A stretch of DNA of 51,242 nucleotides from a virus. Taxonomy: Duplodnaviria; Caudoviricetes. Positions within the stretch are counted from its first letter, which is position 1, and each line of letters starts with the position of its first letter. The stretch is taken from the IMG/VR virus record IMGVR_UViG_3300021080_000001, positions 1 through 51,242 of that record; one strand, 5' to 3'. The notes under the pieces were generated by a model. That model saw nothing but the letters and a program-made list of their open reading frames with translations. It was not told the origin of the DNA and did no database searches. Below, one piece after another: positions 17,778-46,140 of this stretch. Made by a program: the position numbers and the translations under genes.

Positions 17778-17782
17778 CGGGG

Positions 17783-18160: not shown

Positions 18161-18162
18161 GG

Positions 18163-19815: not shown

Positions 19816-19820
19816 GGGGC

Positions 19821-20825
19821 CTAGCGGCGGCGTTTCGCCCTGGAGCGGGAGGTGGGTCGTATCTTGGGAGGCGTGGCCGGGACGGGGCCCGGTCCAGGTC
19901 CGGGTGGGGGGTCGACCGGCAGCGGCGGCGCTCCCTCTAGCAGCACAGGCGGATCGAGCTCGAGCATGGGCGGGATCGTGGATTCGGTGAAGCGGTGGAG
20001 GGCTGCCTCGATCGCCACGGAGCGCCCGGCGACGATCGCCGAATGGGCGATGGCTTCCGAGAGCGCGAGGCCCGGGTCGGTGTCGTCGGTCCAGGTGGAG
20101 AGGATGTAGTCGAGGTTGTCGATCGCGCCTTTGCAGAATTCCACCTGCGGCTGATTCATCGCGACGTTCTGCTGGTGCATGTTCATGCGGTTCACGAGCT
20201 CGGCGCGGCGGATGAGGAGCTTCGCGTGGCGCGGGTGGTTTTCGATCTTGCCGTAGGGGGTGGGCGGTTGCAGGAGGTCCGATTCAAGGGGCACCACGAC
20301 CTTGATCCCGAGTGCGGCTGCGATGCCGAGGAAGTTCTGGCAGCCCGGGCGCTGGAAGGCGTACTCGGAGTGGGCGGCCATGTCGACGCCCCACAGGCCG
20401 ATCGCCCGGGGGCGCAGCTTGATCGCCAGGGCGAGCATGTAGGCCATGCTCGAGGTCCAGAAATAGGGCCCGAACTCGGCCGACATCTCGTCGAAGGGGT
20501 AGACCACGCAGTTCTTGACGGTGGGCACCTGCTCGGCCATGTAGACCGGGCCCTCGTGCAGCTCGAGGAAGCGCACGTATTCCGGGGAGAACCAGGGCTT
20601 GTTGGCGGCGTTCCGCGGGTCCCCGGGTGCGGCAGGTTCCCAGCGGTGGATCTCGAAGAAGACGTCGGAGCGCCCTGGAGGGATCTCCCCGTAAGCGCCG
20701 GGTGAGCAGCCCCAGATGGCCCATGACTGGTCGGTGTAGGGCGCGAGCCTGACTGAGCTCGGGGCGGAGCCGATGATGGCGATCTTGTCAAAGCCGGGCG
20801 GGCCTAGATCCTTCGCGGCGATCAT
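19821..20825 (-). CDS. Putative CMP-nonulosonate (sialyl/pseudaminyl) transferase, CstII/Maf-like fold
   Basis: [18 protein letters not shown] and [12 protein letters not shown]...IGLWGVDM....YAF parallel the CstII motifs as I recall them; C-terminal coiled coil and Pro-rich tail. Confidence 0.6.
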
Positions 20826-21220
20826 AGGATCGCCCCCTCGCGCATGGTGCGGGCGGCCTCACCGTGGACCCCAAGGTGGCATGCCCTGCACAACCATCGG
20901 ACCTCAAGCGGTTTATTGTAGTCGTCGTGATGCTTCTCGGCGGAGAGGTTGCCGCAGTTCTCGCACGGTTTGCGTGCCAGCTTCCCGCGCCGCTGATAGA
21001 CGTTCGCGTAAGAGCGCGACTTTGACGCCTGGCGCTGAGCGCTCGGCAGGTCGGCGTAGCGACGGCGCGTCCTACGCGCATGCGCCGCGTGGCAATTCAG
21101 GCAATATCTTTGTCCTTGTCGGCGGACTTTCTCGCGACACTTTGAACAGAGTTTCACGTGAAACCTCTCTTTCTGATCTCGCGCGGTTTCGCGCGCTGGA
21201 GTTGCCTGGATGCTGAACAC
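20822..21220 (-). CDS. Zn-finger HNH-like endonuclease
   Basis: CxxC pairs and [20 protein letters not shown]. True start probably GTG near 21157. Confidence 0.7.
21150..21165. promoter_or_regulatory. parS-like palindrome
   Basis: aGTTTCACGTGAAACc: perfect 14-bp core, 14/16 match to TGTTTCACGTGAAACA. Confidence 0.55.
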
Positions 21221-21249
21221 CCGTACTCGGAAGTTTTCCCCAGGTTTTA

Positions 21250-21492
21250 TCAGTGCGGCCAGTCCCAGCAGGGGAAATCATCGCCCACGTCGCCCTTGTG
21301 GCAGATGTCGAGGTGGGTTTGTTCTTCACCCTGCACCTCTGCCGCGAGAGCGATGTGGGGATGCTCGCCCTCGCCGTTCGGGACGGCTAGGACCTCGGCC
21401 CGGTGGAGCCTTGCTTCCGGAGGGGCGTCTAGGGCCACTTCGCCTGCGGCCAGGCGGTAGATGACCGTGTCGCCGATGCGCGGGCGGGCCAT
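21250..21492 (-). CDS. Hypothetical protein
   Basis: 80-aa ORF, in operon spacing with its neighbours. Confidence 0.6.
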
Positions 21493-21496
21493 GGCT

Positions 21497-21958
21497 TTAG
21501 GTCGTTGCCGCGCGGCTGATGGCGCTCGTGCCGTTGGTGAGCAGGCCCCACAGGGCGGTGGTGAGCCCGATCAGCTCGACCACGCACCCGGTCAAGGTGG
21601 AGGAGATCACCGTGGCGATGGTGCTGTCGGCGCTCGTCCTGAAGGTTTCCGCGTTCTGGGTCCTCAAGTACTGCGGCGTGTTCGCCGAGGAGAAGATGAT
21701 CGTCTTCCTTACCCCTGGGATCGGGGGCTCGAGCACGTAGACGCTCGAGCTCGCGGCGGAGGTGCCGGCGAGGAACGAGCATCCCCAGGCGGGGACCGTG
21801 ACGAGGGTGGTTTCCGCGGTGGTCACGCCGCGGCGCAGGTCCTCCGGGCCGACCAGCACTTCGGAGGGTTGCCGGCCGCCGAACTGCGCGGTCGACAGGG
21901 GCTGCAGGCCGAGCCTGCGGCCATAGATGGAGGTGAGGATGTTGCTGTTGTAGGACAT
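21497..21958 (-). CDS. Ser/Thr-rich putative virion protein
   Basis: 153 aa, about 27% S+T, beta-strand pattern, AGGAG RBS. Confidence 0.7.
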   Translation of the reverse strand: MSYNSNILTSIYGRRLGLQPLSTAQFGGRQPSEVLVGPEDLRRGVTTAETTLVTVPAWGCSFLAGTSAASSSVYVLEPPIPGVRKTIIFSSANTPQYLRTQNAETFRTSADSTIATVISSTLTGCVVELIGLTTALWGLLTNGTSAISRAATT

Positions 21959-21971
21959 CGCGTGCTCTCCT

Positions 21972-22358
21972 TTATATTTGCTCGCCTGAATGGCTGCTGC
22001 GGAGATTGCCGGCGTTCGCGCCGGCGGGTTGCGCGGGCTTCTCTTTCACATCCCGTGCGGTTTCCTTGGCGCCGTTCTTGCCGAGCGCCATCTTGGTGAT
22101 CTGCAGTTCGACGTTGCGGTCGCCCTTGTTCTGCACCGAGGACGACTCGCTCACGCGGGTCACCTTCACCGTGGCCTCGAGCTCGAGCTCCTCGCCCACA
22201 TTGGGCAGCTTCATCTTCAAGGCGTCCAGTTCGAAGTTCTCCAGGCGCACGGTGAGGCCGTAGCCGTAGTACGGCTCGTTCGGTGAGCCTGGCATCGCGA
22301 GCTCTGCGGTGCCGTCCTTGCGGCGCGGGCGCTTCATGCTCACCAGGGCGGCGGCCAT
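21972..22358 (-). CDS. Capsid staple/cement protein (epsilon15 gp10-like)
   Basis: Y.YGL.VRL...EL..L...LP.VG......ATVKV...S....R.VELQITKM pattern. Confidence 0.6.
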   Translation of the reverse strand: MAAALVSMKRPRRKDGTAELAMPGSPNEPYYGYGLTVRLENFELDALKMKLPNVGEELELEATVKVTRVSESSSVQNKGDRNVELQITKMALGKNGAKETARDVKEKPAQPAGANAGNLRSSHSGEQI

Positions 22359-22360
22359 GG

Positions 22361-22726
22361 CTACTTGCCCCAGACCTCGACGCTCACCACCCCAGAGGAG
22401 GCCGCGGCGAGGGAGAAGCCGGTGGAGGTCCCGGGGATCTGGAAGTCACGCGAGCCGACCACGTAGGAGGAGAGGCCCGAGGACTGGCTGGTGCCGCTGG
22501 TGAAGCTCGAGTCGGCGGCGCTCGATGCCTTGGTCGAGCCGTCGTTGAAGTAGAAGGCGAGCGGGCCGCCCAGGGTGGTGACCCCGGTCACGCGCGCGAT
22601 GTCGGACCCTGCTGGCCAGTCGGCGGCGAGCGGTGTGTTGGCGGCGAGGGGGAACTTTGCTTGGACGTCCGACGGGATCGGGATGTTGTTCGCGTCGGTG
22701 GGGTGCAGCACTCCTGCGGTTCGCAT
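22361..22726 (-). CDS. Ser/Thr-rich putative virion protein
   Basis: 121 aa, about 25% S+T (SSAADSSFTSGTSQSSGLSS); C-terminal GVVSVEVW strand. Confidence 0.7.
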   Translation of the reverse strand: MRTAGVLHPTDANNIPIPSDVQAKFPLAANTPLAADWPAGSDIARVTGVTTLGGPLAFYFNDGSTKASSAADSSFTSGTSQSSGLSSYVVGSRDFQIPGTSTGFSLAAASSGVVSVEVWGK

Positions 22727-22738
22727 CGTGGGTCCTTT

Positions 22739-22936
22739 TCAGTAGCCCATCGCGGTGTGGCGGGGCGCGCTCGGGCGAGTGCGGTTCATCCTGGCTTTCT
22801 TCAGGCCCTTTGCGGTAGGTTTGCTGCCGTGCATGAGCCCGATCTTGTTCAGCGTTCCGTAGACGGCGTGGGCGTTGGAGCCGTAGCGGGCTTTCAGTTT
22901 CGCTTCGACGTGGGCGACAGCGGTTCCTGCGGGCAT
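22739..22936 (-). CDS. Small basic protein
   Basis: 65 aa from ATG 22936 after AAGGGA; K/R-rich. Confidence 0.55.
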   Translation of the reverse strand: MPAGTAVAHVEAKLKARYGSNAHAVYGTLNKIGLMHGSKPTAKGLKKARMNRTRPSAPRHTAMGY

Positions 22937-23087
22937 CGCGGGTCCCTTCGCGCGGGAGTGTAGGCGCTTCGGAAGCAGCGCACAAGAGGCGCACTCGGAA
23001 ACCCGTGTCAAGCATTATTTTTCGGGGCCACGCTCGCGCTAAGTCCTTGATGGTTCGTTCGGGAACGCGAATTCCGGAAAGTCGGTT

Positions 23088-23096
23088 TGGTAAAAT
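23088..23096 (+). promoter_or_regulatory. Extended -10 promoter element
   Basis: TGgTAAAAT upstream of the antisense gene at 23175. Confidence 0.45.
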
Positions 23097-23174
23097 ATGG
23101 GTAGCGGTAGGAGGATCCTGCCGCCGCCGGGAGGGGATCCCGGCAGCGTTCTTTCACAACAACTGGAGGTCATC

Positions 23175-23711
23175 ATGGTATCACGAAGGCAGTGGTACGA
23201 GCGGGTCAATGCGGCCTGGCCCGCCGAGGTTCCTGAGCTCACCGCTCCGGAGGCTGTTCGGGCGGTTCGGCGGTTGTACCGATTCGTGCGGAAGCGCAAG
23301 CTCGAGCTCCCGATCAAGATCACTTCGGGCAATCGCTACACGGGGCGCGGTCGCGGCGGGGTGGTGCTGGTCAACCCCGCGCCCGGGGATCCGCGACAGG
23401 GCTACAAGCGGCATGGCGGAGGCTGGCAGGCGCTGGTCCACGACCTGTCGCACTGGCTCGGAGGGGGTCACTCGAAGGACCACGCGCGGCTTGAGCGCAG
23501 AATGATCCGCGAGGTCGTGCGCCGGGGTTGGCTCAGCGGTGTGCTAAAAATAGCACAGAAGCCGGCGCCAGCTCCGGTCGATGTTCAAGCCGAGCGCCAT
23601 CGCAGCATCCTGGCGCGGATCGATCGATGGCTCGCGAAGAAGAAGCGCGCCAATCGCGCTCTGATGAAGCTTGCGCGGCAGCGCAGGTATTACGAGCGGC
23701 TCGCGGCGTAG
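23175..23711 (+). CDS. Moron-like zincin-motif protein (HDLSH) with basic coiled-coil tail
   Basis: GGAGG RBS before ATG 23175; LVHDLSHW...GHSKDH; opposite strand to its flanks. Confidence 0.7.
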   Translation: MVSRRQWYERVNAAWPAEVPELTAPEAVRAVRRLYRFVRKRKLELPIKITSGNRYTGRGRGGVVLVNPAPGDPRQGYKRHGGGWQALVHDLSHWLGGGHSKDHARLERRMIREVVRRGWLSGVLKIAQKPAPAPVDVQAERHRSILARIDRWLAKKKRANRALMKLARQRRYYERLAA

Positions 23712-23713
23712 TT

Positions 23714-23731
23714 GGGTTCGGGGCCCTTTTT
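23714..23731 (+). terminator. Possible intrinsic terminator
   Basis: Short GGGTT..GGCCC hairpin followed by T5, at the convergence with terS. Confidence 0.35.
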
Positions 23732-24257
23732 ATTCATCCAGCGCGGTCTTGGGCTTCGGCTTGGGTTTGCCCTGGCGCCCGGCGAGGGTGAGCGTGAAGG
23801 CGATCCGGCGCGCCAAGTCCTTCACGTCCTCGGGCCCCTCGGGTTGGAATTCGCCGTCGCCCAGTCCTGGCAGCACTTCGAACTCCGCGGTTTCCTTCAT
23901 GTGCAGGCGCACCTTCGCCCAGAAGATGGCGGCGGCGGCGCTCTTGGCGGTCAGGCGCAGCAGGTTCTGGCCGGCGGTGAGGTCGGCTTTCAACAGGCCC
24001 CGGTCCAGCTCCTCGCGGAAGTGCTTCCGGAGGGTGACAGGGGAGATGGGGCGCTTGGTGGCCGGGTTGATGACGAGGATGGTCATCCTGTCCTCGGGGA
24101 TCCCCAGGCCCGCCATCGCCTCCACCATATTCGATTGCTCGGGGTTCGGTTTGAAGCCCCCGCCTGGAGGTCGGCCGGCGCGGCGTTTACGCTTTGGCCT
24201 TGGCTGGCTTCGCGCGGCGGGTGGCGATCTCGTCGAAGCTGCGGTGTTCTTTTGCAT
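23730..24257 (-). CDS. terS: Terminase small subunit-like protein
   Basis: V..MAG.G.P...I, IS..TL.KHF.EEL..G and AAIFW.K pattern; follows a methyltransferase remnant, as is common in phages. Confidence 0.65.
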   Translation of the reverse strand: MQKNTAASTRSPPAARSQPRPKRKRRAGRPPGGGFKPNPEQSNMVEAMAGLGIPEDRMTILVINPATKRPISPVTLRKHFREELDRGLLKADLTAGQNLLRLTAKSAAAAIFWAKVRLHMKETAEFEVLPGLGDGEFQPEGPEDVKDLARRIAFTLTLAGRQGKPKPKPKTALDE

Positions 24258-24465
24258 GGACGGCGTGCCTCTTGGTGGTGTCCTGCCAGCGGCGCACGCT
24301 CACATCGCAGTAGAGCGGGTCGAGCTCGAGCGCGTAGCAGATGCGGCCTTGCTGCTCGGCCGCCATGAGGGTACTCCCGGATCCGGCAAACATGTCGAGG
24401 ACGATCTCGCCCTCGGCACTTGAGTTAGCGAGCGCTTTGCGGGCGAGTTCGACCGGCTTCTGGTT
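24187..24465 (-). pseudogene. C-terminal remnant of N4/N6 DNA methyltransferase
   Basis: NQKPVEL, VLDMFAGSGST (motif I) and ELDP.YCDV...RW are present. The catalytic DPPY half is absent; the gene is cut exactly at an IS-like inverted repeat. Confidence 0.8.
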
Positions 24466-25259: not shown

Positions 25260-25271
25260 TTTTTATAGACG

Positions 25272-26351
25272 TCACGCAATGCTGCCGGGCGGGCGGGGGT
25301 CGGGCTTGCGGAGGAGCTCCCAGGTGAGGGGTTCGCCTGGGGCGATGTCGCGCGCGGCGGCGACGCCGAGGAAGTGGTGCAGTTCCCTGGGCGGCAAGCC
25401 GTCCGCGGGTCTGAGCGGGCGCACGTTGTGGCCGCTGAACGGTTCTCCCGCTTTCATCGCGCGTATCACGTGGAGCGTGCGGCGCAGAGCGTAGGTTGAG
25501 CGCTCGGATTCGGTGGGCCCGAAGCGCTCCTCGCCGATCGCATCCATCGCCGCGTGCACGGCGTCGATCATGTCGCGCAGGTCCGCCGGTTCGGCGGAGA
25601 ATTCCGCGTCGAGGCCCCCTGCGGCGCGATCGAGCGTGAAGTGCTTCTCGATCATATCGACGCCGTAGAGGGCGGCGGCGATCGCCACGGTGCTCCCGCG
25701 GGTGTGATCTGAGAGGCCCACTTTGCAGCCGTAGTGCTCGCGCAGGTTGTTCAGGGTTTCAAGGTTGGCCTCGGCCGCCGGCGCGGGGTAGGCCGCGGTG
25801 CACTTCAGCAGCGTGATCTGGTTGGTGTCCAGGGCGCTCGTGGCAGCGGCGACCGCCTCATCGATCTCAGCTAAGGTAGCCATCCCGGTGGAGATGACCA
25901 TGGGCTTTCGGGTCGCAGCGGCGACCCGGATGAGATCCAGGTCGAGGATCTCGCAGGAGGCGATCTTGTACATGGGGCAGCCCAGGCGCTCAAGGAAAGG
26001 CACGGCGTCCGGTTCGAACACGCTCGCAAAGGCGAGAATGCCGCGCTCGCGGGCCTGGGTAAAGAGCGCCTGGTGCCAGCTCCAGGGGAGCGCGCCGCGC
26101 CGGTATAGATCGTAGAGGTCCTCGCCGTCCCACTGCCCGCCCTCGATCCGGTGCCGGGTGCCGGGATAGATCATGCCCTCGGGGGTGTAGGTCTGCACCT
26201 TGATCGCGTCGGCGCCGGCTGCGGCTGCGGCGGTCACGGTGGCGAGGGCGAGATCGAGATCCTGGTTGTGGTTCGCTCCGAGTTCTGCGACCACGAACGG
26301 GTAAAAATCGAAGGGCTCCTTCGCCCTGCGCAGCTCACCAGGGAGGATCAC
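25272..26351 (-). CDS. pseI: Pseudaminic acid synthase (NeuB family with SAF domain)
   Basis: VAELGANH, GADAIKVQTY, YKIAS.E, ISTGMA, LLKCT..YPA, GLSDHT, IEKHFTL.R, RR.L...RP..GL.P. Confidence 0.9.
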   Translation of the reverse strand: MILPGELRRAKEPFDFYPFVVAELGANHNQDLDLALATVTAAAAAGADAIKVQTYTPEGMIYPGTRHRIEGGQWDGEDLYDLYRRGALPWSWHQALFTQARERGILAFASVFEPDAVPFLERLGCPMYKIASCEILDLDLIRVAAATRKPMVISTGMATLAEIDEAVAAATSALDTNQITLLKCTAAYPAPAAEANLETLNNLREHYGCKVGLSDHTRGSTVAIAAALYGVDMIEKHFTLDRAAGGLDAEFSAEPADLRDMIDAVHAAMDAIGEERFGPTESERSTYALRRTLHVIRAMKAGEPFSGHNVRPLRPADGLPPRELHHFLGVAAARDIAPGEPLTWELLRKPDPRPPGSIA

Positions 26352-26872
26352 GTGCGCGCCCAGAGCTCGAGGGCGCGGGCGACCTCCTCCAAGGTGCTCG
26401 AGCTAAAGTCCCCGGCGGTGGCCGCGCGCCTCAGTTCCGAGGCCCAGGCTGGGAGGTTCCTTTTCACGACCTGGATCTGGCGGGCGAGCTCTCCGCGCGC
26501 GTAGTCCTCGGCGTTATTTTCCACGGGCTTCAGCGCGTCGTGGGTGCCGCGCTCAACCAGCCCCACGATCACGTAGGGGCGCGGGGGTTCAGCGGCCCGC
26601 CCCGGGATCGCGCGCCGGGTGCCCGAGGCGGGGATCGCGGCTTGGGCGGGGCGTCCCTCCGGTCGATGGATGAGGATGTCGGGGGTCACCTTCTGGTAGC
26701 GCATGCACTCGTCGAACCCGTGCAGGTCCGCTTCGGTGATGAGGACCGTCATCTCCGGGTTCTGATGACGGTTTTTCCACAGGAGAAGCTGCAGGGCGCG
26801 CGCGCCGCCCGCTTCGGCGAATTGGTCGAGGGCGTCCTTAGTCTTCGCGCGGGGCGCTTTGGCCTTCGCCAT
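26348..26872 (-). CDS. Hypothetical protein
   Basis: ATG 26872 after AGGAG; stop overlaps the pseI start. Confidence 0.65.
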   Translation of the reverse strand: MAKAKAPRAKTKDALDQFAEAGGARALQLLLWKNRHQNPEMTVLITEADLHGFDECMRYQKVTPDILIHRPEGRPAQAAIPASGTRRAIPGRAAEPPRPYVIVGLVERGTHDALKPVENNAEDYARGELARQIQVVKRNLPAWASELRRAATAGDFSSSTLEEVARALELWART

Positions 26873-27332
26873 GGTCTTCTCCTGGTTGTGGCAAGCGATA
26901 GGTGCTCTGGATATGCTTCGCCCCGAGGCTTTCGAAAAGGGCGATCGAGGCGACGTTTGCAGGATTGACATTGGCGACGAAGAACCCGGGGATCTCCCCT
27001 GGCACCCCTGGCAGGGGCGTAATCATGCCTATTATGCGCTTGACCGCTTTTCGCCCCCAGCCGTGCCCGCGGTGCTCGGGGACGATGTGCACGCCGATCT
27101 CGTTCCGCTTGGAGACGGAGACCGTCCCGATCCATGTCTCCGCCAAGCTGATGAGGTACCAGGCCCGGTAGGGATGGTCATCGACATAGGCGAGGTGCTC
27201 GCGCAGGCTCGGCATCCTGACGTGGCTGATGTTCATTTGCGGGTTCCTGCCCCGCTCGAGCAAGAGTTGCCACAGGAACTCGACGTGCCCTGAGCGGCGC
27301 GCCTCCACCGGGATCAGGCTGATGTCGGCCAT
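26838..27332 (-). CDS. pseH: GNAT N-acetyltransferase, PseH-like
   Basis: EIG..I.PEHRGHGWG and V...N.ASIALFESLG; lies within the Pse cluster. Confidence 0.7.
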   Translation of the reverse strand: MADISLIPVEARRSGHVEFLWQLLLERGRNPQMNISHVRMPSLREHLAYVDDHPYRAWYLISLAETWIGTVSVSKRNEIGVHIVPEHRGHGWGRKAVKRIIGMITPLPGVPGEIPGFFVANVNPANVASIALFESLGAKHIQSTYRLPQPGEDHGEGQSAPRED

Positions 27333-27508
27333 CGGGTGCGCCCAAATCCCATGATAACCCAGCAGCCCGTGCACGCCCAGATGGGCCCGCGTCCGTAGCA
27401 GGCTTCCACCCCGCACGCTTGGCACGCCCTCGCGAGGAGGGTGCCGTCAGCGTTCATGCCCGCCACGTTGGCCTTGGCGAGGTCCGCGGGAAGGTGGTGC
27501 TGCATCAA
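27314..27508 (-). CDS. Small Cys-rich (Zn ribbon) protein
   Basis: 64 aa with CxxC...C...CxxC; ATGA-coupled to the upstream gene. Confidence 0.5.
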   Translation of the reverse strand: MMQHHLPADLAKANVAGMNADGTLLARACQACGVEACYGRGPIWACTGCWVIMGFGRTRWPTSA

Positions 27509-28266
27509 GCGCGGATCCTTGTCTCGATGCCGTGTTCGGCCAGGTAGCGCGCGGCGTCTTCGGGGGTCTGGTCGGTGAACTGAAACATGGCACCGGCGGC
27601 GACTGCGTCCGCGCCCGCCTCGATCGCTTCGCGCATGTGCTCGTAGCTCCCGCAGCCGCCGTGGGCGATGACCGGGATGGGGAGGTTGGGGGCGATCCTG
27701 TGGATCAACTCGAGATCGTACCCCGCCAGAGTGCCCTCGCGGGAGATGGAGGTCAGCAGCAGTTCCCCCGCGCCGCGCGCCGCGAGGAAGGCGGCGACGG
27801 AAAGCGCTGGGCCGCAGAGGGGCTCTGGCGGGTGGTGGTGGCCGTTTCGGGAGCGCACGGTGCCGTCGGCCGCAACGTCTAAGGCGACTACGATCGCCTG
27901 GGATCCGACCACCCGGGCGCAGCGGGTGACGAGGTACGGCTGCTCGAGCGCCGCGCTGCCGATCACCACCTTGTCGGCGCCAGCTCGGAGGAGCGCGATC
28001 ACCTGCTCGAGCGAGCGCACGCCGCCCCCCACGGCAAGGGGCATGAAGCAGTCGGTGGAGAGCTCGGAGACGAGTTCGAGATCGGGGCCACGGCCCTCCG
28101 CGGTTGCCGCGATGTCAAGGAGCACGAGTTCATCTACGCCGCGCAGTTGGTGGACGCGCACCGCTTGCGCGGCGAGGCCGACCGAGCGCCAGGCGTCGAA
28201 CCGTACGCCCTTCACCATCTGCCGACCACGGGTGAGGATCGTGGGGATGATGCGTTTGGAGATCAC
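27505..28266 (-). CDS. HisF-like cyclase (WbuZ-type partner of sugar amidotransferase)
   Basis: KRIIP.IL, KG..F, DEL..LDI.A, PL.VGGG, GADKV, GAGELLLTSI.REGT..GYD, A.GG.G. Likely GTG start at 28266. Confidence 0.85.
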   Translation of the reverse strand: MISKRIIPTILTRGRQMVKGVRFDAWRSVGLAAQAVRVHQLRGVDELVLLDIAATAEGRGPDLELVSELSTDCFMPLAVGGGVRSLEQVIALLRAGADKVVIGSAALEQPYLVTRCARVVGSQAIVVALDVAADGTVRSRNGHHHPPEPLCGPALSVAAFLAARGAGELLLTSISREGTLAGYDLELIHRIAPNLPIPVIAHGGCGSYEHMREAIEAGADAVAAGAMFQFTDQTPEDAARYLAEHGIETRIRA

Positions 28267-28454
28267 CCGGCCAACCTCGGCGGTGCGCTCTCGGGCCACA
28301 GTGACAAGCGATTCTGCCGGCGCAGGCGCTGCAGTTCCTCGCGCTCGGCCGGGGACTTCTTCGGCAGCTTTCGGGGCGCGCGCGGCGGCGCGAGCTCGGG
28401 GCCGCTTGATGGTGGCGGCTTAGATTCGCCGGTCTCCAAGCGATGACCCAGCAT
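28263..28454 (-). CDS. Hypothetical protein
   Basis: 63 aa; fills the gap and overlaps the HisF-like start (GTGA). Confidence 0.4.
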   Translation of the reverse strand: MLGHRLETGESKPPPSSGPELAPPRAPRKLPKKSPAEREELQRLRRQNRLSLWPESAPPRLAG

Positions 28455-28471
28455 CGGGCCGAGATATGCGC

Positions 28472-29590
28472 TCAGGCGAATTCCTTCAGGATCGGGCGGT
28501 CATCGAGAACCCGGCCGAAGAGGTCCCAGTTGGTAAAGCGCTTGAGCACGTCGAAGAGTTGTCGCTCGGTCATTTCGATGCGCTCCAGAACCTGCTCCAG
28601 ATCCACCCCAGCATACTCGTGCGGGAAGAGGCCATCGCAACCGCGCACAACCTCCAGGGCGTCGCTGCGCGTAATGCGGCCGTTGCGGATGTCGACCGAA
28701 GCCTGGGCTGCGGCGCGCCCGTAGCCGTACTTGCAGTACATGGCGAAGTCGTGCAGTCCCGTCATGGCGTTGTCGAGATTCTCGTGGGCCCACCAGTTCG
28801 CCTCGCTGGGGAACTTCTGGCGCATGCCGTGCTCGGCGGCCACTTGGGCGTTCCGGTGCGAGTCCCAGGGGAAGTAGGCGCCCATGAAGTGGACCTCGAC
28901 GCCGGCCGCCTCCATCGCCTGGGCGTCCATCGGCATGTAGGGACGCATGTCGGTGAGGCTGAAGCCGTGATCCCCGGAGAGCAGGTCCTGGGCGCGCAAT
29001 CCGAGGAAGCCGCCGAACTCGGTCACCCAGCGCCGGGTCATCTGCTTCGCTTGCTCGGTACCTGGGGGCCCTCCGTAGGCTTCTTGGGGGTTTTCGCCGT
29101 ATAAAACCAGCTGCACCCCGAGCGCCGCAGCGATGCTCCACGGGGTGCTGAAGATCGTGGCGTGCTCGGGCCAGCTGATGTCGCCCACGAGCTCAAGGCC
29201 CAGGCGGTTCAGCTTCGCGCGCACGCTGCGGTTGGGCGTCACCTCGATCGTCGGGGCGAAGCGAGCGAGGTTGTCCAGGTTCGCCCGGCCGATCAGGGTG
29301 AGCATGCAGGTCGAGGCGGTGACGAGGAGCGGCCGGTAGCCCAGTTCGATCACTTTCAGCGCGATCCAGTGGCTGTCCTTGCCTCCTGAGCTCGCCACGA
29401 TGCAATCGTAGGGGGCGAGCGAGTAGGCGCGAGCGCTGTAGTTCGCCATCAGCTCGTGGAATTCGAGCTCGCGCGCGGCCCAGTCCACTGCCGGCCGTCT
29501 GGTGAAGGAGCGGCAAGCCGAGCACACGCCGTCCTCGAAGGGGGTGTCCGGGCGGGTGTCGGGGATGACGCAGAGTCGGCAGCGGTTCAT
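28472..29590 (-). CDS. N-acetyl sugar amidotransferase (PseA/WbuX-like)
   Basis: CxxC..PDTRP...GVC.AC, YDCIV..SGGKDS (PP-loop), YGEN...YGG, K.GYGR...QAS.DIR.G.ITR. Confidence 0.88.
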   Translation of the reverse strand: MNRCRLCVIPDTRPDTPFEDGVCSACRSFTRRPAVDWAARELEFHELMANYSARAYSLAPYDCIVASSGGKDSHWIALKVIELGYRPLLVTASTCMLTLIGRANLDNLARFAPTIEVTPNRSVRAKLNRLGLELVGDISWPEHATIFSTPWSIAAALGVQLVLYGENPQEAYGGPPGTEQAKQMTRRWVTEFGGFLGLRAQDLLSGDHGFSLTDMRPYMPMDAQAMEAAGVEVHFMGAYFPWDSHRNAQVAAEHGMRQKFPSEANWWAHENLDNAMTGLHDFAMYCKYGYGRAAAQASVDIRNGRITRSDALEVVRGCDGLFPHEYAGVDLEQVLERIEMTERQLFDVLKRFTNWDLFGRVLDDRPILKEFA

Positions 29591-30309
29591 GGATGCTTCT
29601 GCATCAAAAACCAGGTCAGGTCGTCCTGGGGAAAATGGTCGCGGTGATAGATGAAGCCGTAGTCGAGAAGCTCAACGTTCGGATACTGTCCCATCAGCTC
29701 GCCCGCAAAATCGCGCCGCCACAGTGCCCGGGTGTAGCCCCGGTACTGGATCACCTGGGGCGTGGGGTTGTAGTACTCGGCCATGAGGATGTAGCGCTTG
29801 GAGCAGCGGTAGAGGGTCTCGTAGGCCGCGGCGATGTAGTCGGGGGCAATGTGGATCAGGACGCCCTTGGTGAAGGCCATGTCCCACAGGCGATCGGGCT
29901 CGAACCCGAGGAGGCTCCCCCGGATGGTGTAGTCGGCCACGCGTTCGAGGAGCGCGCGCGCTTTGGGGTTGATCTCGAGGCCGGTCGTTTCGATGTCCCG
30001 GTCGATGTCCTTGATCGCCTGGAGGTTGGAGCCTGCGCCCGCGCCGAGCTCGATCACCGACCACAGGGGGTAGTCGATCAGGGCGAGGATCTTGGCGAAG
30101 AGCGCGCGGTTGTTCTCCAGGCCCCCGAGGTTCCGGTCGGTGTACTCGTCCCCGAAGGGCCCCGCCCACAGGCGCTCCTGGAAGTTCCTCGGGCTCACTT
30201 GCATGATGTCGGGCAGGTGCGCTCCCAAGCGCGCCCTCATGCGCTCGACCAGCTCGGCCATTCCCGGGCCGAAGAGGGTGCGCGCGAAGCGGACGATGCT
30301 CTCGTTCAC
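29587..30309 (-). CDS. Pseudaminic acid biosynthesis-associated SAM methylase
   Basis: QE..W.G.FGDEY..RN, ELGAG.G.NL, TKGVLIHI.P, AEYYNP.P, RDFAGE, DYGF.YHRD..PQDD.TWFL. Likely start GTG 30309 overlapping the pseF stop. Confidence 0.85.
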   Translation of the reverse strand: MNESIVRFARTLFGPGMAELVERMRARLGAHLPDIMQVSPRNFQERLWAGPFGDEYTDRNLGGLENNRALFAKILALIDYPLWSVIELGAGAGSNLQAIKDIDRDIETTGLEINPKARALLERVADYTIRGSLLGFEPDRLWDMAFTKGVLIHIAPDYIAAAYETLYRCSKRYILMAEYYNPTPQVIQYRGYTRALWRRDFAGELMGQYPNVELLDYGFIYHRDHFPQDDLTWFLMQKHP

Positions 30310-30926
30310 AGGATCTGCCTGGGTTGGGGTACGCCGTCGGTATCGCCCTCGAGTCTGCGGCGCCAGGCGGCGTACATCTGCTTGGCGTGGATCCAGTCCT
30401 CCTCGGTGTTGATGTCGATGTAGCGCCCGGTGAGTCCCATCATCAAATAATGGGGGCTCTCCCCGAGCGGCGTTCGCGCGAGAAACGCGCCGACACTGCC
30501 CCAGTAGTACCAGCCCGGCACGAACGCCCACGTTATCCACGGCTGCTCGTCCAGGAGCTTGCGGCCCGTGCGCAGGTCCTCCGGGGTCATCATGGGGGCG
30601 GTCGGGTAGATGCAGCAAGCGTGCTCGATGCCTGGGCCGCAGCCGTTCAGGGCGTCCCTGGTCACCTCCTGGGTGCCGGTGTCGTCATCGGCGAGGCGGC
30701 TGTGGCGCCGCAGATAGCTCGCCCCGTAGTCCATGGCGATCGCGCCGATCAGGTCGGAGTCGGTCGAGACGATGATCCGGGCGAAGAGGCCACTCGCCTT
30801 CGCCGCGAGGATCGAGTAGGCGATGATCGGCTTGCCGTGAAACAAGCGGATGTTCTTTTCCGGGATTCTCTTGCTGCCGGCCCGGGCGGGGATGATGGCG
30901 ATCGCGCTCATTTTGTGGGCCACCAC
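30306..30926 (-). CDS. pseF: CMP-pseudaminate synthetase (acylneuraminate cytidylyltransferase)
   Basis: AIIPARAGSKRIP.KNI..F.GKPIIAYSI, VSTD, CCIYPTAP, DINTEEDW. Confidence 0.88.
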   Translation of the reverse strand: MVAHKMSAIAIIPARAGSKRIPEKNIRLFHGKPIIAYSILAAKASGLFARIIVSTDSDLIGAIAMDYGASYLRRHSRLADDDTGTQEVTRDALNGCGPGIEHACCIYPTAPMMTPEDLRTGRKLLDEQPWITWAFVPGWYYWGSVGAFLARTPLGESPHYLMMGLTGRYIDINTEEDWIHAKQMYAAWRRRLEGDTDGVPQPRQIL

Positions 30927-31399
30927 GCGGGCGCGCGGACGGCATCGAGCCCGATGAGCCTGGCAATCTCCTCGGGGGACTCCAGCACGCTCACCCTGGC
31001 GAGCATGACCCCGTGTTCCAGGCCGGTGCCGCAGGCCAAGCTCACGCAGGTGCAGGCGATCTCGTCGTGGTAGGCCTCGATCGAGGATCTCGCGACCAGT
31101 CCATGGGCCGCGTTCAGCGCCGCGGCGGCTTCGCGCGTGCGCATGTAGGAGTTGATCGCCCGTTCGGACTGTTCGCTGTCGACCACCATGGAGGGCGGGT
31201 TCGCGGCCTCGGCGCTCACCCGCAGCACTTCGTCGTGGAGGCTGCTGATGGCTTGGCGCCAGGCTTCGCCGCTCCCCTTTTTCACGGGACGCGTGATGCT
31301 TGCTTCGATCAGGAGCACCCGCGTGGGGTCGATATAGACGGGGCTCGATCTGCCGCCGTTTATGTCGGGGTTGGGGATTCCGGTGAGCTTGATCAGCAT
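30908..31399 (-). CDS. Hypothetical protein
   Basis: 163 aa with GAGG RBS; C-terminal V.ES.EEI..LI. Confidence 0.6.
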   Translation of the reverse strand: MLIKLTGIPNPDINGGRSSPVYIDPTRVLLIEASITRPVKKGSGEAWRQAISSLHDEVLRVSAEAANPPSMVVDSEQSERAINSYMRTREAAAALNAAHGLVARSSIEAYHDEIACTCVSLACGTGLEHGVMLARVSVLESPEEIARLIGLDAVRAPAWWPTK

Positions 31400-31402
31400 G
31401 GG

Positions 31403-32056
31403 CTACCTCGGTTTTCCTCGCTCGCGTTCCGGGTCTACGATCAGGCGGATGTCGTCGTAGCCGTAGACCGAGTGGCTTTTCACCAGGTGATACTGGGCGA
31501 AGATGTCGCAGTCCTCACTCGCTGTCACGCGGATGCCGCGGCCTTCAGCGACGCCGCACCAGTATTCCAGGCACGCCCGGGCGCTGATCGGCTCCTCCCG
31601 CCAGCTGTCCAGGGCGAGACCGATGCCGTGGAGCGCGATCTCGGCCGCGCCCTCGAGGATGGCGTAGGCGACCAGCATGTCGAAGCTACCGGCGTGATAG
31701 CGCCCTCCGCGGGGGGTCAAACGGGCGAGCGAGGCCACCGGGAACAAACGCTCGCGCTCTAGGAGCCCGTGCCAGGTGTCAATCACGTAGATCGGGATCT
31801 GGGGGTTTGCTTTGGACCAGGCGGTATCCCACAGGATGTACTGGTAGGCGTCCCGGTTCAGGTGCTCGAAGCGGTGCAGGTTGAACATGCGCGCCCAGCG
31901 GATGGGTTGCCAGCCCTTTTCGCGGCCGTCCGGGCGGATGCTGTTTAAACCCCAGATCTCCCAGCCGGGACCCTCGTGCTGGCCGAGGAATTGTTCTTCG
32001 CGCGCGGCCCCGCCGATGATGGCGACTTTGAGTTTGCGTCGGTTCAGGATCTTCAC
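31403..32056 (-). CDS. Second CstII/Maf-like glycosyltransferase-fold protein (paralog of 19821..20825)
   Basis: KVAIIG, WEIWGLN, FNLH, GS..MLVAYAI.EGA.EIALHGI, R.C.EYW.G.A..RGI.V and YGY align in order with the 334-aa protein. Confidence 0.6.
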   Translation of the reverse strand: MKILNRRKLKVAIIGGAAREEQFLGQHEGPGWEIWGLNSIRPDGREKGWQPIRWARMFNLHRFEHLNRDAYQYILWDTAWSKANPQIPIYVIDTWHGLLERERLFPVASLARLTPRGGRYHAGSFDMLVAYAILEGAAEIALHGIGLALDSWREEPISARACLEYWCGVAEGRGIRVTASEDCDIFAQYHLVKSHSVYGYDDIRLIVDPERERGKPR

Positions 32057-32060
32057 GTGG

Positions 32061-32432
32061 CTACCTCGAGGCGAGTTCGGTCACGGCTTCGAGCACCGCA
32101 TCGATGATGTGGCTGGCAATGTAGGCGGGCTTTTTGCCCTCCTGCTCCATGCTCGTGAACATGATGGTGGCCCGGGTGATGAGCATATCGCGAAGGCGGT
32201 TCGCAGCGTAGTGCAGGCGCTCCTCGCGGGTTACCAGGCGCTGGATCCGGTCGGCTTCGGCGGTCATGGCGTCGGCCACGTTGCGGGCGCCGGCCGGGTC
32301 GAAGGCAATCCACAGTTTAGGCTCGGGGAAGCGCAGGATCACCTTGCCGCGCTCTGAGAGGACGCCCACGCTCGTCGGTCCGTCACCGCCCTCGGCAATG
32401 AGGGGGCTCGGGGTATCGTCGCTGCCGTTCAT
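32061..32432 (-). CDS. Hypothetical protein
   Basis: ATG 32432 overlaps the upstream stop; G.V.L.F..P...I.FD...A motif. Confidence 0.6.
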   Translation of the reverse strand: MNGSDDTPSPLIAEGGDGPTSVGVLSERGKVILRFPEPKLWIAFDPAGARNVADAMTAEADRIQRLVTREERLHYAANRLRDMLITRATIMFTSMEQEGKKPAYIASHIIDAVLEAVTELASR

Positions 32433-32674
32433 CCCCACTTGAGCTCCTGCGCGACCTTGATGCCGATGTGCTTGCAGGCGTTGAGGAGGTCGGTGACGAT
32501 CGATTTGGCCTGCTCGCGGTTGAACTGCAGGTGGTCGCTCGGATGGGTGAACTTCAGGAACACCATGCCGGTGGGGGCGTTCGCGTAGGTTTCCACCTTC
32601 TGGTCCATCACGATCGGGGGGCGTTGCTTTGCCTTCAGGGCGTCGCGCAGTTGCTCGGGTTTCATCGGAAGCAC
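32429..32674 (-). CDS. Hypothetical protein (possible paralog of neighbour)
   Basis: GMVFLKFTHP...LQFN...A resembles the neighbour's GKVILRFPEP..IAFD...A. Confidence 0.55.
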   Translation of the reverse strand: MLPMKPEQLRDALKAKQRPPIVMDQKVETYANAPTGMVFLKFTHPSDHLQFNREQAKSIVTDLLNACKHIGIKVAQELKWG

Positions 32675-33345
32675 TCCATCTGGGAGAGATCGGGATAATC
32701 ATCGTTCAGCAGGTCCGGATTGTCATCGGGCAGGAAGGACAGGCGCACCAGGCCCTCGGCCGCGATTTCCGGGGACATGTAGGCGTGCCAGCCGGCGAAG
32801 CTGAAGGTGTCATCCTTGGGTGCCACGTTCTCGGTGCGCCCGTCAAAGCGCGCCCGGCGTAGCCACGCGTCGGCTTCCTTGCTCGAGTGCAGGATCGCCC
32901 CGCCCTGCTGGATGCCGAGGATCTTGGACCAGTGGAACGAGAGGCACACCATTTCGTCGTTCAGGGACGGCGCGTTCTCGTTCCTGTCGCTCCAGCGCGA
33001 GCTCCAAGAGTACATGTTGCTCCGGAGGCGCCTGGCGCTGTCGTAGATCGGCAGCGGGTTCAGGCGGTAGGCGCCTTGCCAGTTCTCGTCCCTGAAGGTG
33101 GGACGGGCCCCGGCGTGGATGATGCTCATCGGCACGCTCACGTAGGTGCGCCGCGGGATGTCGATCACCGGGCGGCCGACCCAGGGGCGATCGCGCAGAG
33201 GGAGCTCGCGCAGGTGGTAGGCGATCGCGAGGAGGAGTGCCATGGTGCAGCTGGAGACGGCCACGCAGTAGGGGGCGCCGGCGTACTCGGCGACGGCTTG
33301 CTCGAACTCCTGGACGACCTGGAAGGGGTTGTGGCGCTGTTTCAC
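32662..33345 (-). CDS. pseC: DegT/DnrJ-family PLP sugar aminotransferase, PseC-like, short form
   Basis: FEQAVAEY.GA.Y.VAVSSCT.AL, P..TYVS, DSA, SFH..K (PLP lysine), GGAI. Confidence 0.8.
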   Translation of the reverse strand: MKQRHNPFQVVQEFEQAVAEYAGAPYCVAVSSCTMALLLAIAYHLRELPLRDRPWVGRPVIDIPRRTYVSVPMSIIHAGARPTFRDENWQGAYRLNPLPIYDSARRLRSNMYSWSSRWSDRNENAPSLNDEMVCLSFHWSKILGIQQGGAILHSSKEADAWLRRARFDGRTENVAPKDDTFSFAGWHAYMSPEIAAEGLVRLSFLPDDNPDLLNDDYPDLSQMECFR

Positions 33346-34226
33346 AGCTTCGCCAGTTCCATGCGCAGCGCTTCGATCGTCATCCGGGGCGCGTCGTAGG
33401 AACGCCGCGGGCCGCCGGGTTCGCCGTAGGCGAGGAGCGATTCGTGGGTCTTTTCGTCGGTGCCGAGCTCGTCGTTCACTTCGACGTCGAGGTCCGCCTC
33501 GGGCAGCATGGCGAGGGCGAGGTCGCCCAGGCGATAGGCGGGGAGAGTGGGCACGAGTAGGGTTCCCCCTGGGAGCGTGTTCACCTGCAGGACGAGGGCC
33601 ACGGCTTGGGGGGCTGTGATCCAGAAGCGTGTCGCCTCGGGGTTCCTCACCGTGATCTTGCGTCCTGCGGCGAGGGCTTCACGCCAGATGGGGATCACCG
33701 AGCCCGTGCTGCCGGCGACGTTGCCGTAGCGGGTTGCGCTGAATTTCGGAGCTAGATAGTGGCCGACCGTGTTGCTTGCGCCGAGGAAGAGCTTCTCGGC
33801 GAGCAGTTTCGTGGCCCCGTAGCAGTTCAGGGGTTCGACCGCCTTGTCGGTGGAGATGAGGATGGCCGAGTGGACCCCGGCATCGATGGCGGCCTCGATC
33901 ACGTTCTGGGTCCCGAGCACGTTGGTTTTCATCATCTCGGCCGGGTTGTAGACCCCGACCTCGATGCGCTTCAAGGCGGCCGCGTGGACCACGGTGTTCA
34001 CCGACTCCATGGCCCAGCGCAGGCGCGGCTTGTCGCGCACGTCCCCGATGAACCAGCGCAGGCGCGGGTCGTCGTTGAACTCGGCCCGCATGGCAGCCTG
34101 AGCCGCCTCGCTGCGGGAAAAGATGCACACCCGCGCCTCGCCCTGGTCGAGGAGTTCGCGCGCAAGCGCGCGCCCCAGGAACCCTGTGCCGCCGGTGATG
34201 AGCCAGCCGATATGCGCGGGTTTCAT
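33342..34226 (-). CDS. pseB: UDP-GlcNAc 4,6-dehydratase (inverting)
   Basis: ITGGTG.LG, IGDVRD..RL, HAAALK, YNP.E..KTN..G, STDKA..P.N.YGATK, RYGNV.GS.GSV, TRFWI. Confidence 0.9.
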   Translation of the reverse strand: MKPAHIGWLITGGTGFLGRALARELLDQGEARVCIFSRSEAAQAAMRAEFNDDPRLRWFIGDVRDKPRLRWAMESVNTVVHAAALKRIEVGVYNPAEMMKTNVLGTQNVIEAAIDAGVHSAILISTDKAVEPLNCYGATKLLAEKLFLGASNTVGHYLAPKFSATRYGNVAGSTGSVIPIWREALAAGRKITVRNPEATRFWITAPQAVALVLQVNTLPGGTLLVPTLPAYRLGDLALAMLPEADLDVEVNDELGTDEKTHESLLAYGEPGGPRRSYDAPRMTIEALRMELAKL

Positions 34227-34230
34227 GGGC

Positions 34231-34267
34231 AAAAAGAAGCCGCGCCACCCGGCAGAGTGAGCGCGGC
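34231..34267 (-). terminator. Intrinsic terminator immediately upstream of pseB
   Basis: Minus strand GCCGCGC-TCAC...GTG-GCGCGGC followed by TTCTTTTT. Confidence 0.65.
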
Positions 34268-34308
34268 CTGGAGGTTGGGCTGGGAGCCCAATGCAGAGAA
34301 GAGCCGCG

Positions 34309-34314
34309 ATTGTA
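34309..34314 (-). promoter_or_regulatory. -10 element of putative late promoter
   Basis: TACAAT just after the ruvC stop; no consensus -35. Confidence 0.4.
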
Positions 34315-34320
34315 CCGCAA

Positions 34321-34830: not shown

Positions 34831-34851
34831 TGTGACTTGTTCAAACGCTCG

Positions 34852-35652
<801 letters not shown>

Positions 35653-35799
35653 AAAATGCTCCTCAATCGAGAGACTACTTTTTCGCCTTTGGGGGTCTTG
35701 GTATGTGGATGTCGGTCGCGTAGATCAGGTCGATCGGACACTCGCAGCGCGGCCAGTGACAGGGCGACCCGCCACCTCTGGCGCGACATCTTATGGGAA

Positions 35800-46135: not shown

Positions 46136-46140
46136 GGTGT

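Follow-up and report, generated by a model that had tools for sequence, protein, structure and literature searches.

Maf enzymes normally act on flagellin, and the Campylobacter transferases Cst-I and Cst-II, which we take to belong to CAZy family GT42, act on lipooligosaccharide sugars and not on proteins. Glycosylation of the phage particle itself has been described in mycobacteriophages (Freeman et al. 2023, as summarised in PMC12619734): phage transferases are linked to structural genes, and capsid and tail tube subunits are reported to carry glycans at their C-terminal ends. Other phage genes tailor sugars of the host: two further papers describe epaAB of an Acinetobacter prophage, which converts capsule pseudaminic acid (Pse) to 8-epi-Pse (PMC12053666), and phage O-acetyltransferases that act on capsule nonulosonates (PMC6586298). 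A review table lists pseI among marine phage auxiliary genes (PMC6359870). Antibodies that are pan-specific for Pse have been reported (bioRxiv 10.1101/2025.07.13.664564). Here we describe a locus in the 51,242-base genome of a tailed phage (IMG/VR record IMGVR_UViG_3300021080_000001, positions 1 to 51,242; "the window" means this whole stretch). A cluster of Pse biosynthesis genes is found together with genes for two candidate transferases, GT1 and GT2, and for a small Ser/Thr-rich protein, ST153. Our preferred reading, to which we assign a probability of about 50%, is that of a self-contained cytoplasmic protein-pseudaminylation cassette, the acceptor of which, probably ST153, ends on the virion. 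A preliminary description of positions 19821 to 34226 had proposed that the phage makes its own activated nonulosonate and coats its particle in the manner of flagellin. The genes that it named are all present, co-oriented on the minus strand; its observation is confirmed, and its interpretation is partly supported. The genes central to the argument are:

18163..19815, minus strand: large terminase (terL), phrog_979 E 8.8e-24; begins the packaging and structural module
19821..20825, minus strand: GT1, 334 residues, with residues 1-186 as a predicted Maf/Cst-fold core, followed by a long helix (198-244) and a Pro-rich basic tail modelled at low confidence
21497..21958, minus strand: ST153, Ser/Thr-rich, 153 residues, 27% Ser plus Thr (S+T), co-occurring with GT1; proposed acceptor or partner of GT1
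31403..32056, minus strand: GT2, 217 residues, Maf/Cst-fold transferase candidate, based on its modelled fold and paralogy to GT1; syntenic in eight related loci (L002-L009)

The association of these genes was followed in related phages. Searching IMG/VR with the GT2 alignment yielded 24 loci (L002-L025). The order from PseB to PseI around GT2 is kept in eight of them (L002-L009); among the other 16 (L010-L025), a NeuB-like or PseF-like gene is found in eight and none in the remaining eight, mostly short contigs. For the scan with the GT1 alignment, 80 of 149 relatives were kept. At least three Pse genes were detected by tblastn in 22/24 of its loci with at least 8 kb upstream, terL follows GT1 within 2.5 kb in 67/68 loci, and an ST153 homolog lies at most 400 bases upstream of GT1 in 48/74. 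A scan with the terL alignment, meant to catch phages without the module, kept 80 of 313 relatives. Twenty-six of these loci have at least 7.5 kb upstream: four carry GT1, ST153 and at least five Pse genes, 21 lack all three, and one has a GT1-like open reading frame (ORF) 4.7 kb away and nothing else.

After removal of identical terL, the pooled set comprises 137 distinct loci and the window, with families detected by hidden Markov models of our own alignments. Where at least 2.5 kb upstream of terL is available (n = 92, window included), 58 loci have ST153 together with GT1 beside terL, 34 have neither, and in no locus does one occur without the other; since 80 loci were picked because they have GT1, the share of loci with the module cannot be read as a prevalence, and the lack of discordance alone counts. 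With at least 7.5 kb upstream (n = 50), at least three Pse genes accompany GT1 in 25/28 loci, and any Pse gene is found in 0/22 loci lacking GT1. The co-occurrence of Pse genes, transferase and Ser/Thr-rich protein, which the preliminary description had suggested examining across phages, is strongly positive. A terL tree of 138 rows built with FastTree requires at least 9 changes of state for GT1, 9 for ST153 and 8 for Pse. The independent contrasts taken from well-supported branches all point in the same direction, in 7/7 cases for ST153 (sign test p = 0.016) and 5/5 for Pse (p = 0.06), and suggest that gain or loss of GT1, ST153 and the Pse genes coincided in at least 5-7 independent events. 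Co-occurrence, tree and contrasts together indicate that the three behave as one accessory module, repeatedly gained or lost. The GT1-lacking loci of the same terL lineage that reach that far have the scaffold gene as well as the major capsid protein gene (13/13). GT2 is an optional second transferase outside the minimal module; it is absent in all 11 other GT1-bearing loci where PseC and PseF both lie in the fetched stretch.

The pairing extends to distant phages, in which GT1 is ~27-35% identical. An ST153-like ORF lies directly upstream of the GT1-like ORF in L010, L012, L107, L108, L110 and L111. The pair directly precedes the genes of tail tubular proteins A and B in L110 (phrog_394 E 4e-55; phrog_376 E 2.5e-191), and a tail fibre gene is located ~1.6 kb beyond it in L012. 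A head-tail adaptor gene comes after the GT1-like gene of L025, where an ST153-like ORF was not detected. The ST153-GT1 pair is found inside other virion gene modules too.

GT1 and GT2 are remote paralogs (hhalign probability 98.1%, E 9e-14, 188 columns), in agreement with the earlier proposal of two sialyltransferase-motif paralogs, one within the cluster and one before terL. AlphaFold (AF2) models obtained from 35-sequence alignments have a mean pLDDT of 79.9 for GT1 and 84.3 for GT2. They were compared to known structures with Foldseek and by alignment to each of 48,161 representative chains (VIA-align). The latter ranks the Maf enzyme of Magnetospirillum magneticum AMB-1 (5mu5, chain 5mu5_A) first of all chains for both GT1 (Z 10.9, root-mean-square deviation 3.1, 159 aligned residues) and GT2 (Z 10.5, 3.2, 162 aligned), followed by MptE HPPK, SteA, Cst-I and mammalian sialyltransferases. 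The individual scores are Z 9.8 for MptE HPPK and 9.0 for CstI with the GT1 model, and Z 10.0 for CstI 2p56 with the GT2 model. In Foldseek, Campylobacter CstII is the top match of both (Cst-I/Cst-II E 3e-4 to 7e-4), a Pasteurella sialyltransferase matches both as well, and human ST6GALNAC2, ST8SiaIII and Maf then follow for GT2; thiamine and MptE-type pyrophosphokinases are also returned. The fold modelled for GT1 and GT2 is that shared by Maf, sialyltransferases and MptE, and the sialyltransferase fold on which the preliminary description depended is recovered by both methods.

At the sequence level, neither protein has a match in Pfam (E <= 10), NCBIfam, PHROGs or PADLOC. The nearest predicted viral structures are uncharacterised proteins of uncultured phages, including ~700-residue "MptE-like" ones, and a giant-virus DUF115 protein. 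The GT1 family comprises at least 784 protein clusters (784 matches among 8,000 candidates scored); 164 matches were obtained for GT2.

The similarity to Maf covers ~160 residues of its central catalytic domain and is accompanied by further parallels: a soluble, cytoplasmic enzyme, a genetic tie to the Pse pathway and a Ser/Thr-rich protein as the presumed acceptor. Major differences can be observed as well. GT2 and GT1 are 217 and 334 residues long, compared to 632 in Maf, and retain only a core of ~190 residues. They show no PF01973 sequence match, and the partner of GT1 is a phage protein of ~150 residues instead of flagellin. The GT1 genes are phage-encoded and placed in virion modules. 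With Cst-I and Cst-II, the top Foldseek matches, GT1 and GT2 have in common an N-terminal strand and a Gly-rich loop (the "sialyltransferase motif"); this likeness is one of fold, without sequence similarity. Judging from the models, the closest mechanistic relatives would be the Maf flagellin glycosyltransferases and the GT42 sialyltransferases, at the fold level only.

In biological terms, virion glycosylation of mycobacteriophages comes nearest. In both cases a phage transferase is tied to structural genes, and the C-terminal glycans of the mycobacteriophage subunits may be compared with the ST153 family, which ends in Ser or Thr in 114/150 members. The window phage differs in carrying a whole activated-nonulosonate pathway, in the predicted sialyltransferase/Maf fold of its transferase and in its candidate acceptor, a separate small protein and not the major capsid protein, which has only 12% S+T. 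The system described here is known from genes alone.

ST153 stands out in composition. The mean S+T content in the genome is 11%, with a standard deviation (SD) of 5%, and four proteins lie more than 2 SD above it: p406 (27%), ST153 (27%), ST121 (25%) and p128 (22%). Of the at least five Ser/Thr-rich proteins counted in the preliminary description, these four stand, while p125, at 18%, is within 2 SD of the mean. ST153 is unrelated to ST121, p128 and p406 in a direct comparison. A profile search of 1.84 billion representatives, counted at 50% identity, found 1038 members of the ST153 family at E <= 0.001 and 346 at E <= 1e-10. The top 150 are all stand-alone proteins of 120-192 residues with a median S+T of 26% (range 18.5-33%), compared to 10% for the GT1 homologs, and a GRRxG-type N-terminal motif is present in 106/150. 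A search for longer, fused forms found none, which is weak evidence. The Atlas clusters of ST153 are viral only. Its Atlas model (pLDDT 0.62) resembles the N-terminal domain of Mtd (Mtd_N) and T4 gp9/10 N-domain clusters (TM 0.58-0.62); the modelled likeness to fibre and spike attachment domains serves as a lead only. No PADLOC family matches ST153.

In the window, an HNH endonuclease gene (phrog_2340 E 3.3e-15) and an 80-residue ORF, p80, split ST153 from GT1 (20822-21492). They probably represent a homing-endonuclease insertion, because the ST153 homolog lies within 400 bases of GT1 in the 48/74 relatives mentioned above. On its other side, ST153 adjoins the following genes:

21972..22358, minus strand: homolog of the Gp10-like capsid decoration protein; Pfam PF21628 E 7e-8, 33.1 bits against a threshold of 27; PDB 3j40 chain N "gp10" E 1.4e-4
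22361..22726, minus strand: ST121, small, Ser/Thr-rich (25%); in 11/42 GT1-bearing loci and 0/25 GT1-lacking loci

The entry 3j40 is presumably the capsid of epsilon15, whose decoration protein is gp10. The Ser/Thr-rich p128, encoded after the capsid gene, is found in 28/34 module-bearing versus 3/13 module-lacking loci, a difference that may reflect distance and was not used as evidence. Co-inheritance makes ST153, always found with GT1, the strongest candidate for the acceptor, in place of the five Ser/Thr-rich proteins considered previously.

The sugar genes form a cluster on the minus strand, from 34232 down to 25272. NCBIfam matches were judged against the curated equivalog cut-offs. In gene order, the cluster contains:

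33342..34232, minus strand: PseB-like UDP-GlcNAc (uridine diphosphate N-acetylglucosamine) 4,6-dehydratase; Pfam Polysacc_synt_2 E 2.3e-70; best NCBIfam match PseB, E 1.4e-80, 270.6 bits, below the cut-off of 407.75
32662..33345, minus strand: short DegT/PseC-like aminotransferase, 227 residues; Pfam DegT E 3.9e-14, 53.1 bits
32429..32674, minus strand: p81, small conserved protein; the real frame inside the mechanically called ORF "p213"; conserved in 4 related loci
32061..32432, minus strand: p123, conserved, between PseC and GT2/PseF; tblastn matches in 14 related loci, always adjoining PseC
31403..32056, minus strand: GT2, as above
30908..31399, minus strand: p163, conserved; tblastn matches within the cluster in L004, L005, L007, L008 and L009
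30306..30926, minus strand: PseF-like CMP-nonulosonate synthetase (CMP, cytidine monophosphate); Pfam CTP_transf_3 E 1.1e-22; NCBIfam PseF E 3.8e-47, 160.8 bits, below the cut-off of 205.7
29587..30300, minus strand: Pse-biosynthesis-associated methylase; TIGR03587 E 1.2e-60, 205.2 bits, above the cut-off of 112.05
28472..29590, minus strand: WbuX-type N-acetyl sugar amidotransferase; TIGR03573 E 2.5e-72, 244.2 bits, above the cut-off of 203.2
27505..28299, minus strand: WbuZ/HisF2 acetamidino-modification protein; NF038364 E 2.2e-67 and TIGR03572 E 4.1e-67, both below cut-off (226 bits against 299.7); Pfam His_biosynth E 1.4e-52
26838..27425, minus strand: GNAT acetyltransferase, possible PseH analogue; Pfam Acetyltransf_3 and Acetyltransf_1
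26348..26872, minus strand: p174 (ORF "p207" read from Met34), between GNAT and PseI; conserved at 40-61% in L002-L009
25272..26351, minus strand: PseI pseudaminic acid synthase; TIGR03586 E 1.5e-115, 385.9 bits, above the cut-off of 340.25; Pfam NeuB and SAF

The identities put forward earlier hold to different degrees. PseI, WbuX and the methylase score above their cut-offs; PseB, PseF and WbuZ are the best-matching families of their genes at scores below cut-off; PseC is recognised as a DegT protein only and PseH as a generic GNAT. PseI is distinguished from NeuB_NnaB, which it matches with 273 bits, below the cut-off of 399.65. The PseC-like protein reaches 32.9 bits with the NCBIfam PseC profile (cut-off 423.5), with 227 residues against 380 profile positions. 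Two of its segments align to solved sugar aminotransferases; the second, containing an FSFxxNK stretch that we take to be the site of the pyridoxal phosphate lysine, is not significant alone. The protein is conserved at 42-67% in related loci. Only the N-terminal half of the PseF-like protein matches the PseF profile. The true start of the methylase is near 30300; the mechanically called ORF extends to 30618, and TIGR03587 covers its residues 147-341. The mechanically called ORF of 213 residues is really two genes, p81 and p123. For GNAT, no PseH match was obtained in NCBIfam at E <= 0.001.

Neither PseG nor a WbuY/HisH-type glutaminase was matched among the tested ORFs of the window in Pfam and NCBIfam. 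The possible PseG analogues within the cluster are p123, p163 and p174, and the last of these occupies the place of PseG in the canonical gene order. No family was found for p174 in Pfam, NCBIfam or PADLOC, for p163 in Pfam, NCBIfam, PHROGs or PADLOC, or for p123 and its full mechanically called ORF in Pfam or PADLOC; the Atlas structure search with p174, based on a poor model, gave no usable match. Compared with bacterial PseBCHGIF and a PseA-type amidotransferase, the window has homologs of PseB, PseI and PseF, a PseC-like protein and a GNAT, together with WbuX, WbuZ and the methylase; it differs in the lack of PseG and WbuY/HisH, in the short PseC-like protein and in the interspersed p123, p163 and p174. 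The profile matches support the conclusion that the phage encodes most of the CMP-pseudaminic-acid pathway, with acetamidino and methyl tailoring. The earlier claim that it makes its own activated nonulosonate is upheld for the most part of the pathway, with the PseG step missing.

Zero membrane segments are predicted in the proteins of the sugar cluster, and no flippase or Gtr family was matched in Pfam or NCBIfam, as the preliminary description had noted for flippase, GtrABC and membrane transferases. Among the proteins of the window, membrane-type hydrophobic segments are predicted in the lysis genes only. The locus differs in this from serotype conversion systems (GtrABC, O-antigen acetylases): the scanned ORFs include no membrane transferase, flippase or integrase. 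The Acinetobacter prophages share with the window phage genes acting on pseudaminic acid; theirs are single steps on a host capsule sugar in temperate elements, whereas the window phage has a near-complete pathway, its own transferase and a partner protein, and no integrase was found.

The following scheme would account for these features. The soluble enzymes PseB, short PseC-like protein, GNAT, PseI and PseF would convert UDP-GlcNAc to CMP-activated pseudaminic acid, with the UDP-releasing PseG step possibly performed by p174, p123 or p163, or by a host enzyme. Going by their family names, WbuX and WbuZ are probably responsible for an acetamidino modification, and the methylase possibly for a methyl group. 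GT1, as a minimal Maf-like transferase, would use the CMP-sugar donor in the cytoplasm and O-glycosylate ST153, and perhaps other Ser/Thr-rich particle proteins, on Ser/Thr residues, and the product would become part of the surface of the virion. For GT2, elongation of the glycan or transfer to a different acceptor is conceivable. More tentatively, and at somewhat less than even odds, we propose that the locus represents a portable protein-sialylation kit, consisting of the Pse pathway, the smallest known Maf-type transferase (~190-residue core) and its own acceptor of 150 residues, that swaps between head, tail and packaging modules and gives rise to nonulosonate-coated particles.

Such a kit would provide the first nonulosonate-decorated phage particle, as well as an orthogonal tag-and-enzyme pair for protein pseudaminylation. 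If the pseudaminylation cassette is real, nonulosonic acids would join the chemistry of phage particles, and flagellin-style cytoplasmic O-glycosylation would have been miniaturised and mobilised by viruses. A charged sugar coat of bacterial type could alter particle stability, sorption to sediment and recognition by hosts, grazers and immune systems. Maf-type specificity is still described as poorly understood, and it would become directly testable with a transferase of minimal size that has a small acceptor of its own. Given the large GT1 and ST153 families, environmental viromes would often contain the module, yet cultured phages lack it, as judged from 50,697 GenBank phage records. These contain one distant match to GT1, zero to ST153 and two remote NeuB-like matches to PseI.

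The single GT1 homolog belongs to Microcystis phage Mvi-Yong1342-1 (PP496355.1, 8902-9705; L106), with 37% identity. It is annotated as "type 11 methyltransferase", a name that the Maf/sialyltransferase fold modelled for the family suggests to be wrong. Among 185,579 species genomes (one genome per species), GT1 is found on only 6 contigs, all from metagenome-assembled genomes (MAGs), and no host was found. No paper on a phage-encoded Pse pathway with a transferase, or on a nonulosonate on a phage particle, was found in a full-text search, outside which lie most subscription journals and supplements. The view that no characterised tailed phage has such a system agrees with both the GenBank records and this search. 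Contigs from an RNA library with at least 99% identity cover parts of the region in 14/30 bins, namely parts of terL, GT1-HNH-p80-ST153, Gp10-like-ST121, PseI, WbuX, methylase, PseF, p163, GT2 and PseC; they give no evidence of timing, as such libraries may contain DNA and contigs give no levels, and the uncovered parts carry no meaning.

A number of points weigh against virion pseudaminylation. The fold is common to MptE-type and thiamine pyrophosphokinases and SteA (Z 9.8-9.3 for GT1), so that it is by itself no proof of a glycosyltransferase, and it is the gene context that separates them. PF01973 was matched neither by hmmscan at E <= 10 nor in a six-frame search of the whole genome, and solved sialyltransferases were not matched in sequence by phmmer or by the GT1 and GT2 profiles against the PDB, where the GT1 profile returned only insignificant coiled-coil matches to its helix. 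Three GT1-bearing loci have fewer than three Pse genes: L071, a short stretch, has two, L075 also has two, with WbuX and WbuZ downstream of terL, and L039 carries GT1 and ST153 with no Pse gene within 10 kb. The homolog of the Microcystis phage precedes terS-terL, and the 9 kb shown there contain no Pse cluster. The terL tree behind the 5-7 joint changes was built with FastTree only, and since terL adjoins the module, mosaicism could inflate the number of independent events. With PseG missing, the PseC-like protein truncated and several enzymes below their equivalog cut-offs, the exact sugar is uncertain. ST153 has no match in PHROGs, in the scan of the window, or in the 50,697 GenBank phage records, and hence its presence in a particle is supported by no proteome. 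Beta-rich fibre and decoration proteins, too, are commonly rich in Ser/Thr. The donor, acceptor, O-linkage, late expression and virion location, together with all chemistry including glycosylation, are what we infer from the genes.

It is conceivable that the cassette alters the host instead of the particle, with flagellin, pilin or an S-layer protein being modified, or host glycosyltransferases being fed for lipopolysaccharide or capsule, and ST153 acting as an adaptor. Flagellin is, after all, the normal target of Maf enzymes, and the pectate-lyase-like tailspike implies that surface glycans matter to this phage; phage tailoring of host Pse and nonulosonates is known as well (PMC12053666, PMC6586298). 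We nevertheless regard this as unlikely, since no integrase was found in the scanned ORFs, membrane, flippase and ligase components are not encoded, and GT1 is always accompanied by the phage's own ST153, in a pair found in tail and head modules of unrelated genome layouts; lysogenic conversion in particular is difficult to reconcile with the presence of GT1 on just 6 MAG contigs. The purposes that a changed host surface might serve, masking of receptors against superinfection or keeping progeny off debris, seem improbable to a similar extent. ST153 could also be glycosylated and remain outside the particle, as an intracellular or released glycoprotein (a decoy, anti-defence factor or assembly aid). 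ST153 is missing in the 34 loci of this terL lineage that lack GT1, and the 13/13 of them mentioned above share the scaffold and major capsid protein genes, which indicates that it is dispensable for particle building; no structural family matches it, and the lack of longer fused forms is weakly in line with this. The position among virion genes in several layouts, the resemblance of the Atlas model to attachment domains, as a lead, and the lack of a PADLOC family argue for the opposite, and make a location outside the particle quite unlikely.

That the sugar genes are an auxiliary metabolic set, boosting or redirecting host nonulosonate while GT1 and ST153 have an unrelated role in packaging or assembly, would fit L039, the Microcystis phage and the listing of pseI as a marine phage auxiliary gene in the table of PMC6359870. 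It is very unlikely in view of the 0/22 loci with Pse genes but no GT1, the 5/5 concordant Pse contrasts, the embedding of GT2 within the sugar cluster and the NeuB-like or PseF-like genes in 8/16 of the distant GT2-like loci. A non-protein target, such as DNA or a small molecule, or an MptE-like pyrophosphokinase activity of GT1 and GT2, appears highly improbable. The cluster does adjoin DNA-modification genes, DpdA and a DNA methylase remnant, and MptE HPPK and thiamine pyrophosphokinases are structurally close; however, sialyltransferases and Maf dominate the fold matches, DpdA is unique to the window among 67 relatives and looks like a separate inserted cassette, genes for hydroxymethylated bases and preQ0 synthesis were not found in the window scans, and the tie to ST153 has no place in such a reading.

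The window constitutes a complete podovirus-type genome with direct terminal repeats, rated 100% complete, with a G+C content of ~66%; nearly all genes discussed are on the minus strand. Metagenomes are the only place where the phage has been met, and its sequence was found in DNA runs labelled freshwater sediment metagenomes, from which the record may have been derived. The terL is 37-40% identical to that of Acidovorax phage AP1, Limnohabitans phage DC33 and Bordetella phage BPP-1. Downstream of it lie the genes for portal, a scaffold-like protein, major capsid protein, tail tubular proteins A and B and internal virion proteins, and then the tailspike and the lysis cassette; the gene layout is that of a podovirus. 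No integrase is present among the scanned ORFs. In the other direction, the order after PseI is DpdA, DNA methylase remnant, a 175-residue gene, p90, ST121, Gp10-like, ST153, p80, HNH endonuclease, GT1 and terL. The 175-residue gene (23730-24257) had been called terS in the preliminary description; this label is by position only, as Pfam, NCBIfam and the other scans offer no family for it. A 204-residue ORF on the opposite, plus strand (23097-23711) occupies the ~720-base gap between the possible terS and p90 and matches no Pfam, NCBIfam, PHROGs or PADLOC family. A promoter and terminator scan of 17700-36500 showed no clear operon boundaries.

The tailspike (46141-48132) contains a pectate-lyase-like beta-helix, a predicted feature that points to a polysaccharide receptor. 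The surrounding region (44350-48132) includes an endolysin (45530-46165), a spanin-like lipobox protein (44350-44736) and p120 and p88, which are both small and have strong membrane segments. Beyond the other end of the sugar cluster, a 266-residue ORF (34852-35652) has a long alanine-rich low-complexity tract, which reads as poly-Arg or poly-Gly in other frames; it has a weak PHROG match of unnamed function.

DpdA (24489-25223; Pfam DpdA E 1.9e-36) is exactly flanked by inverted, AT-rich near-palindromes of 22 nucleotides (24466-24487 and 25238-25259), a motif found four times in the window versus 0 expected. The gene is missing from 67/67 related loci, which have ~2 kb between PseI and a DNA methylase at this site; the window keeps a 101-residue C-terminal remnant of the methylase (24187-24492). 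No preQ0 synthesis genes were found in the window scans, and DpdA looks like an inserted cassette. The motif recurs as a second inverted pair (35795-35816 and 36209-36230) around small ORFs (35958-36233 and 35675-36073), where it may mark another cassette or a regulatory site. Contigs of two DNA runs have loose ends at 23953, 24164, 24454 and 25784, as well as an alternative joint that connects 25571 to 24434 with 16 other letters between, which suggests population variants around the DpdA/methylase region.

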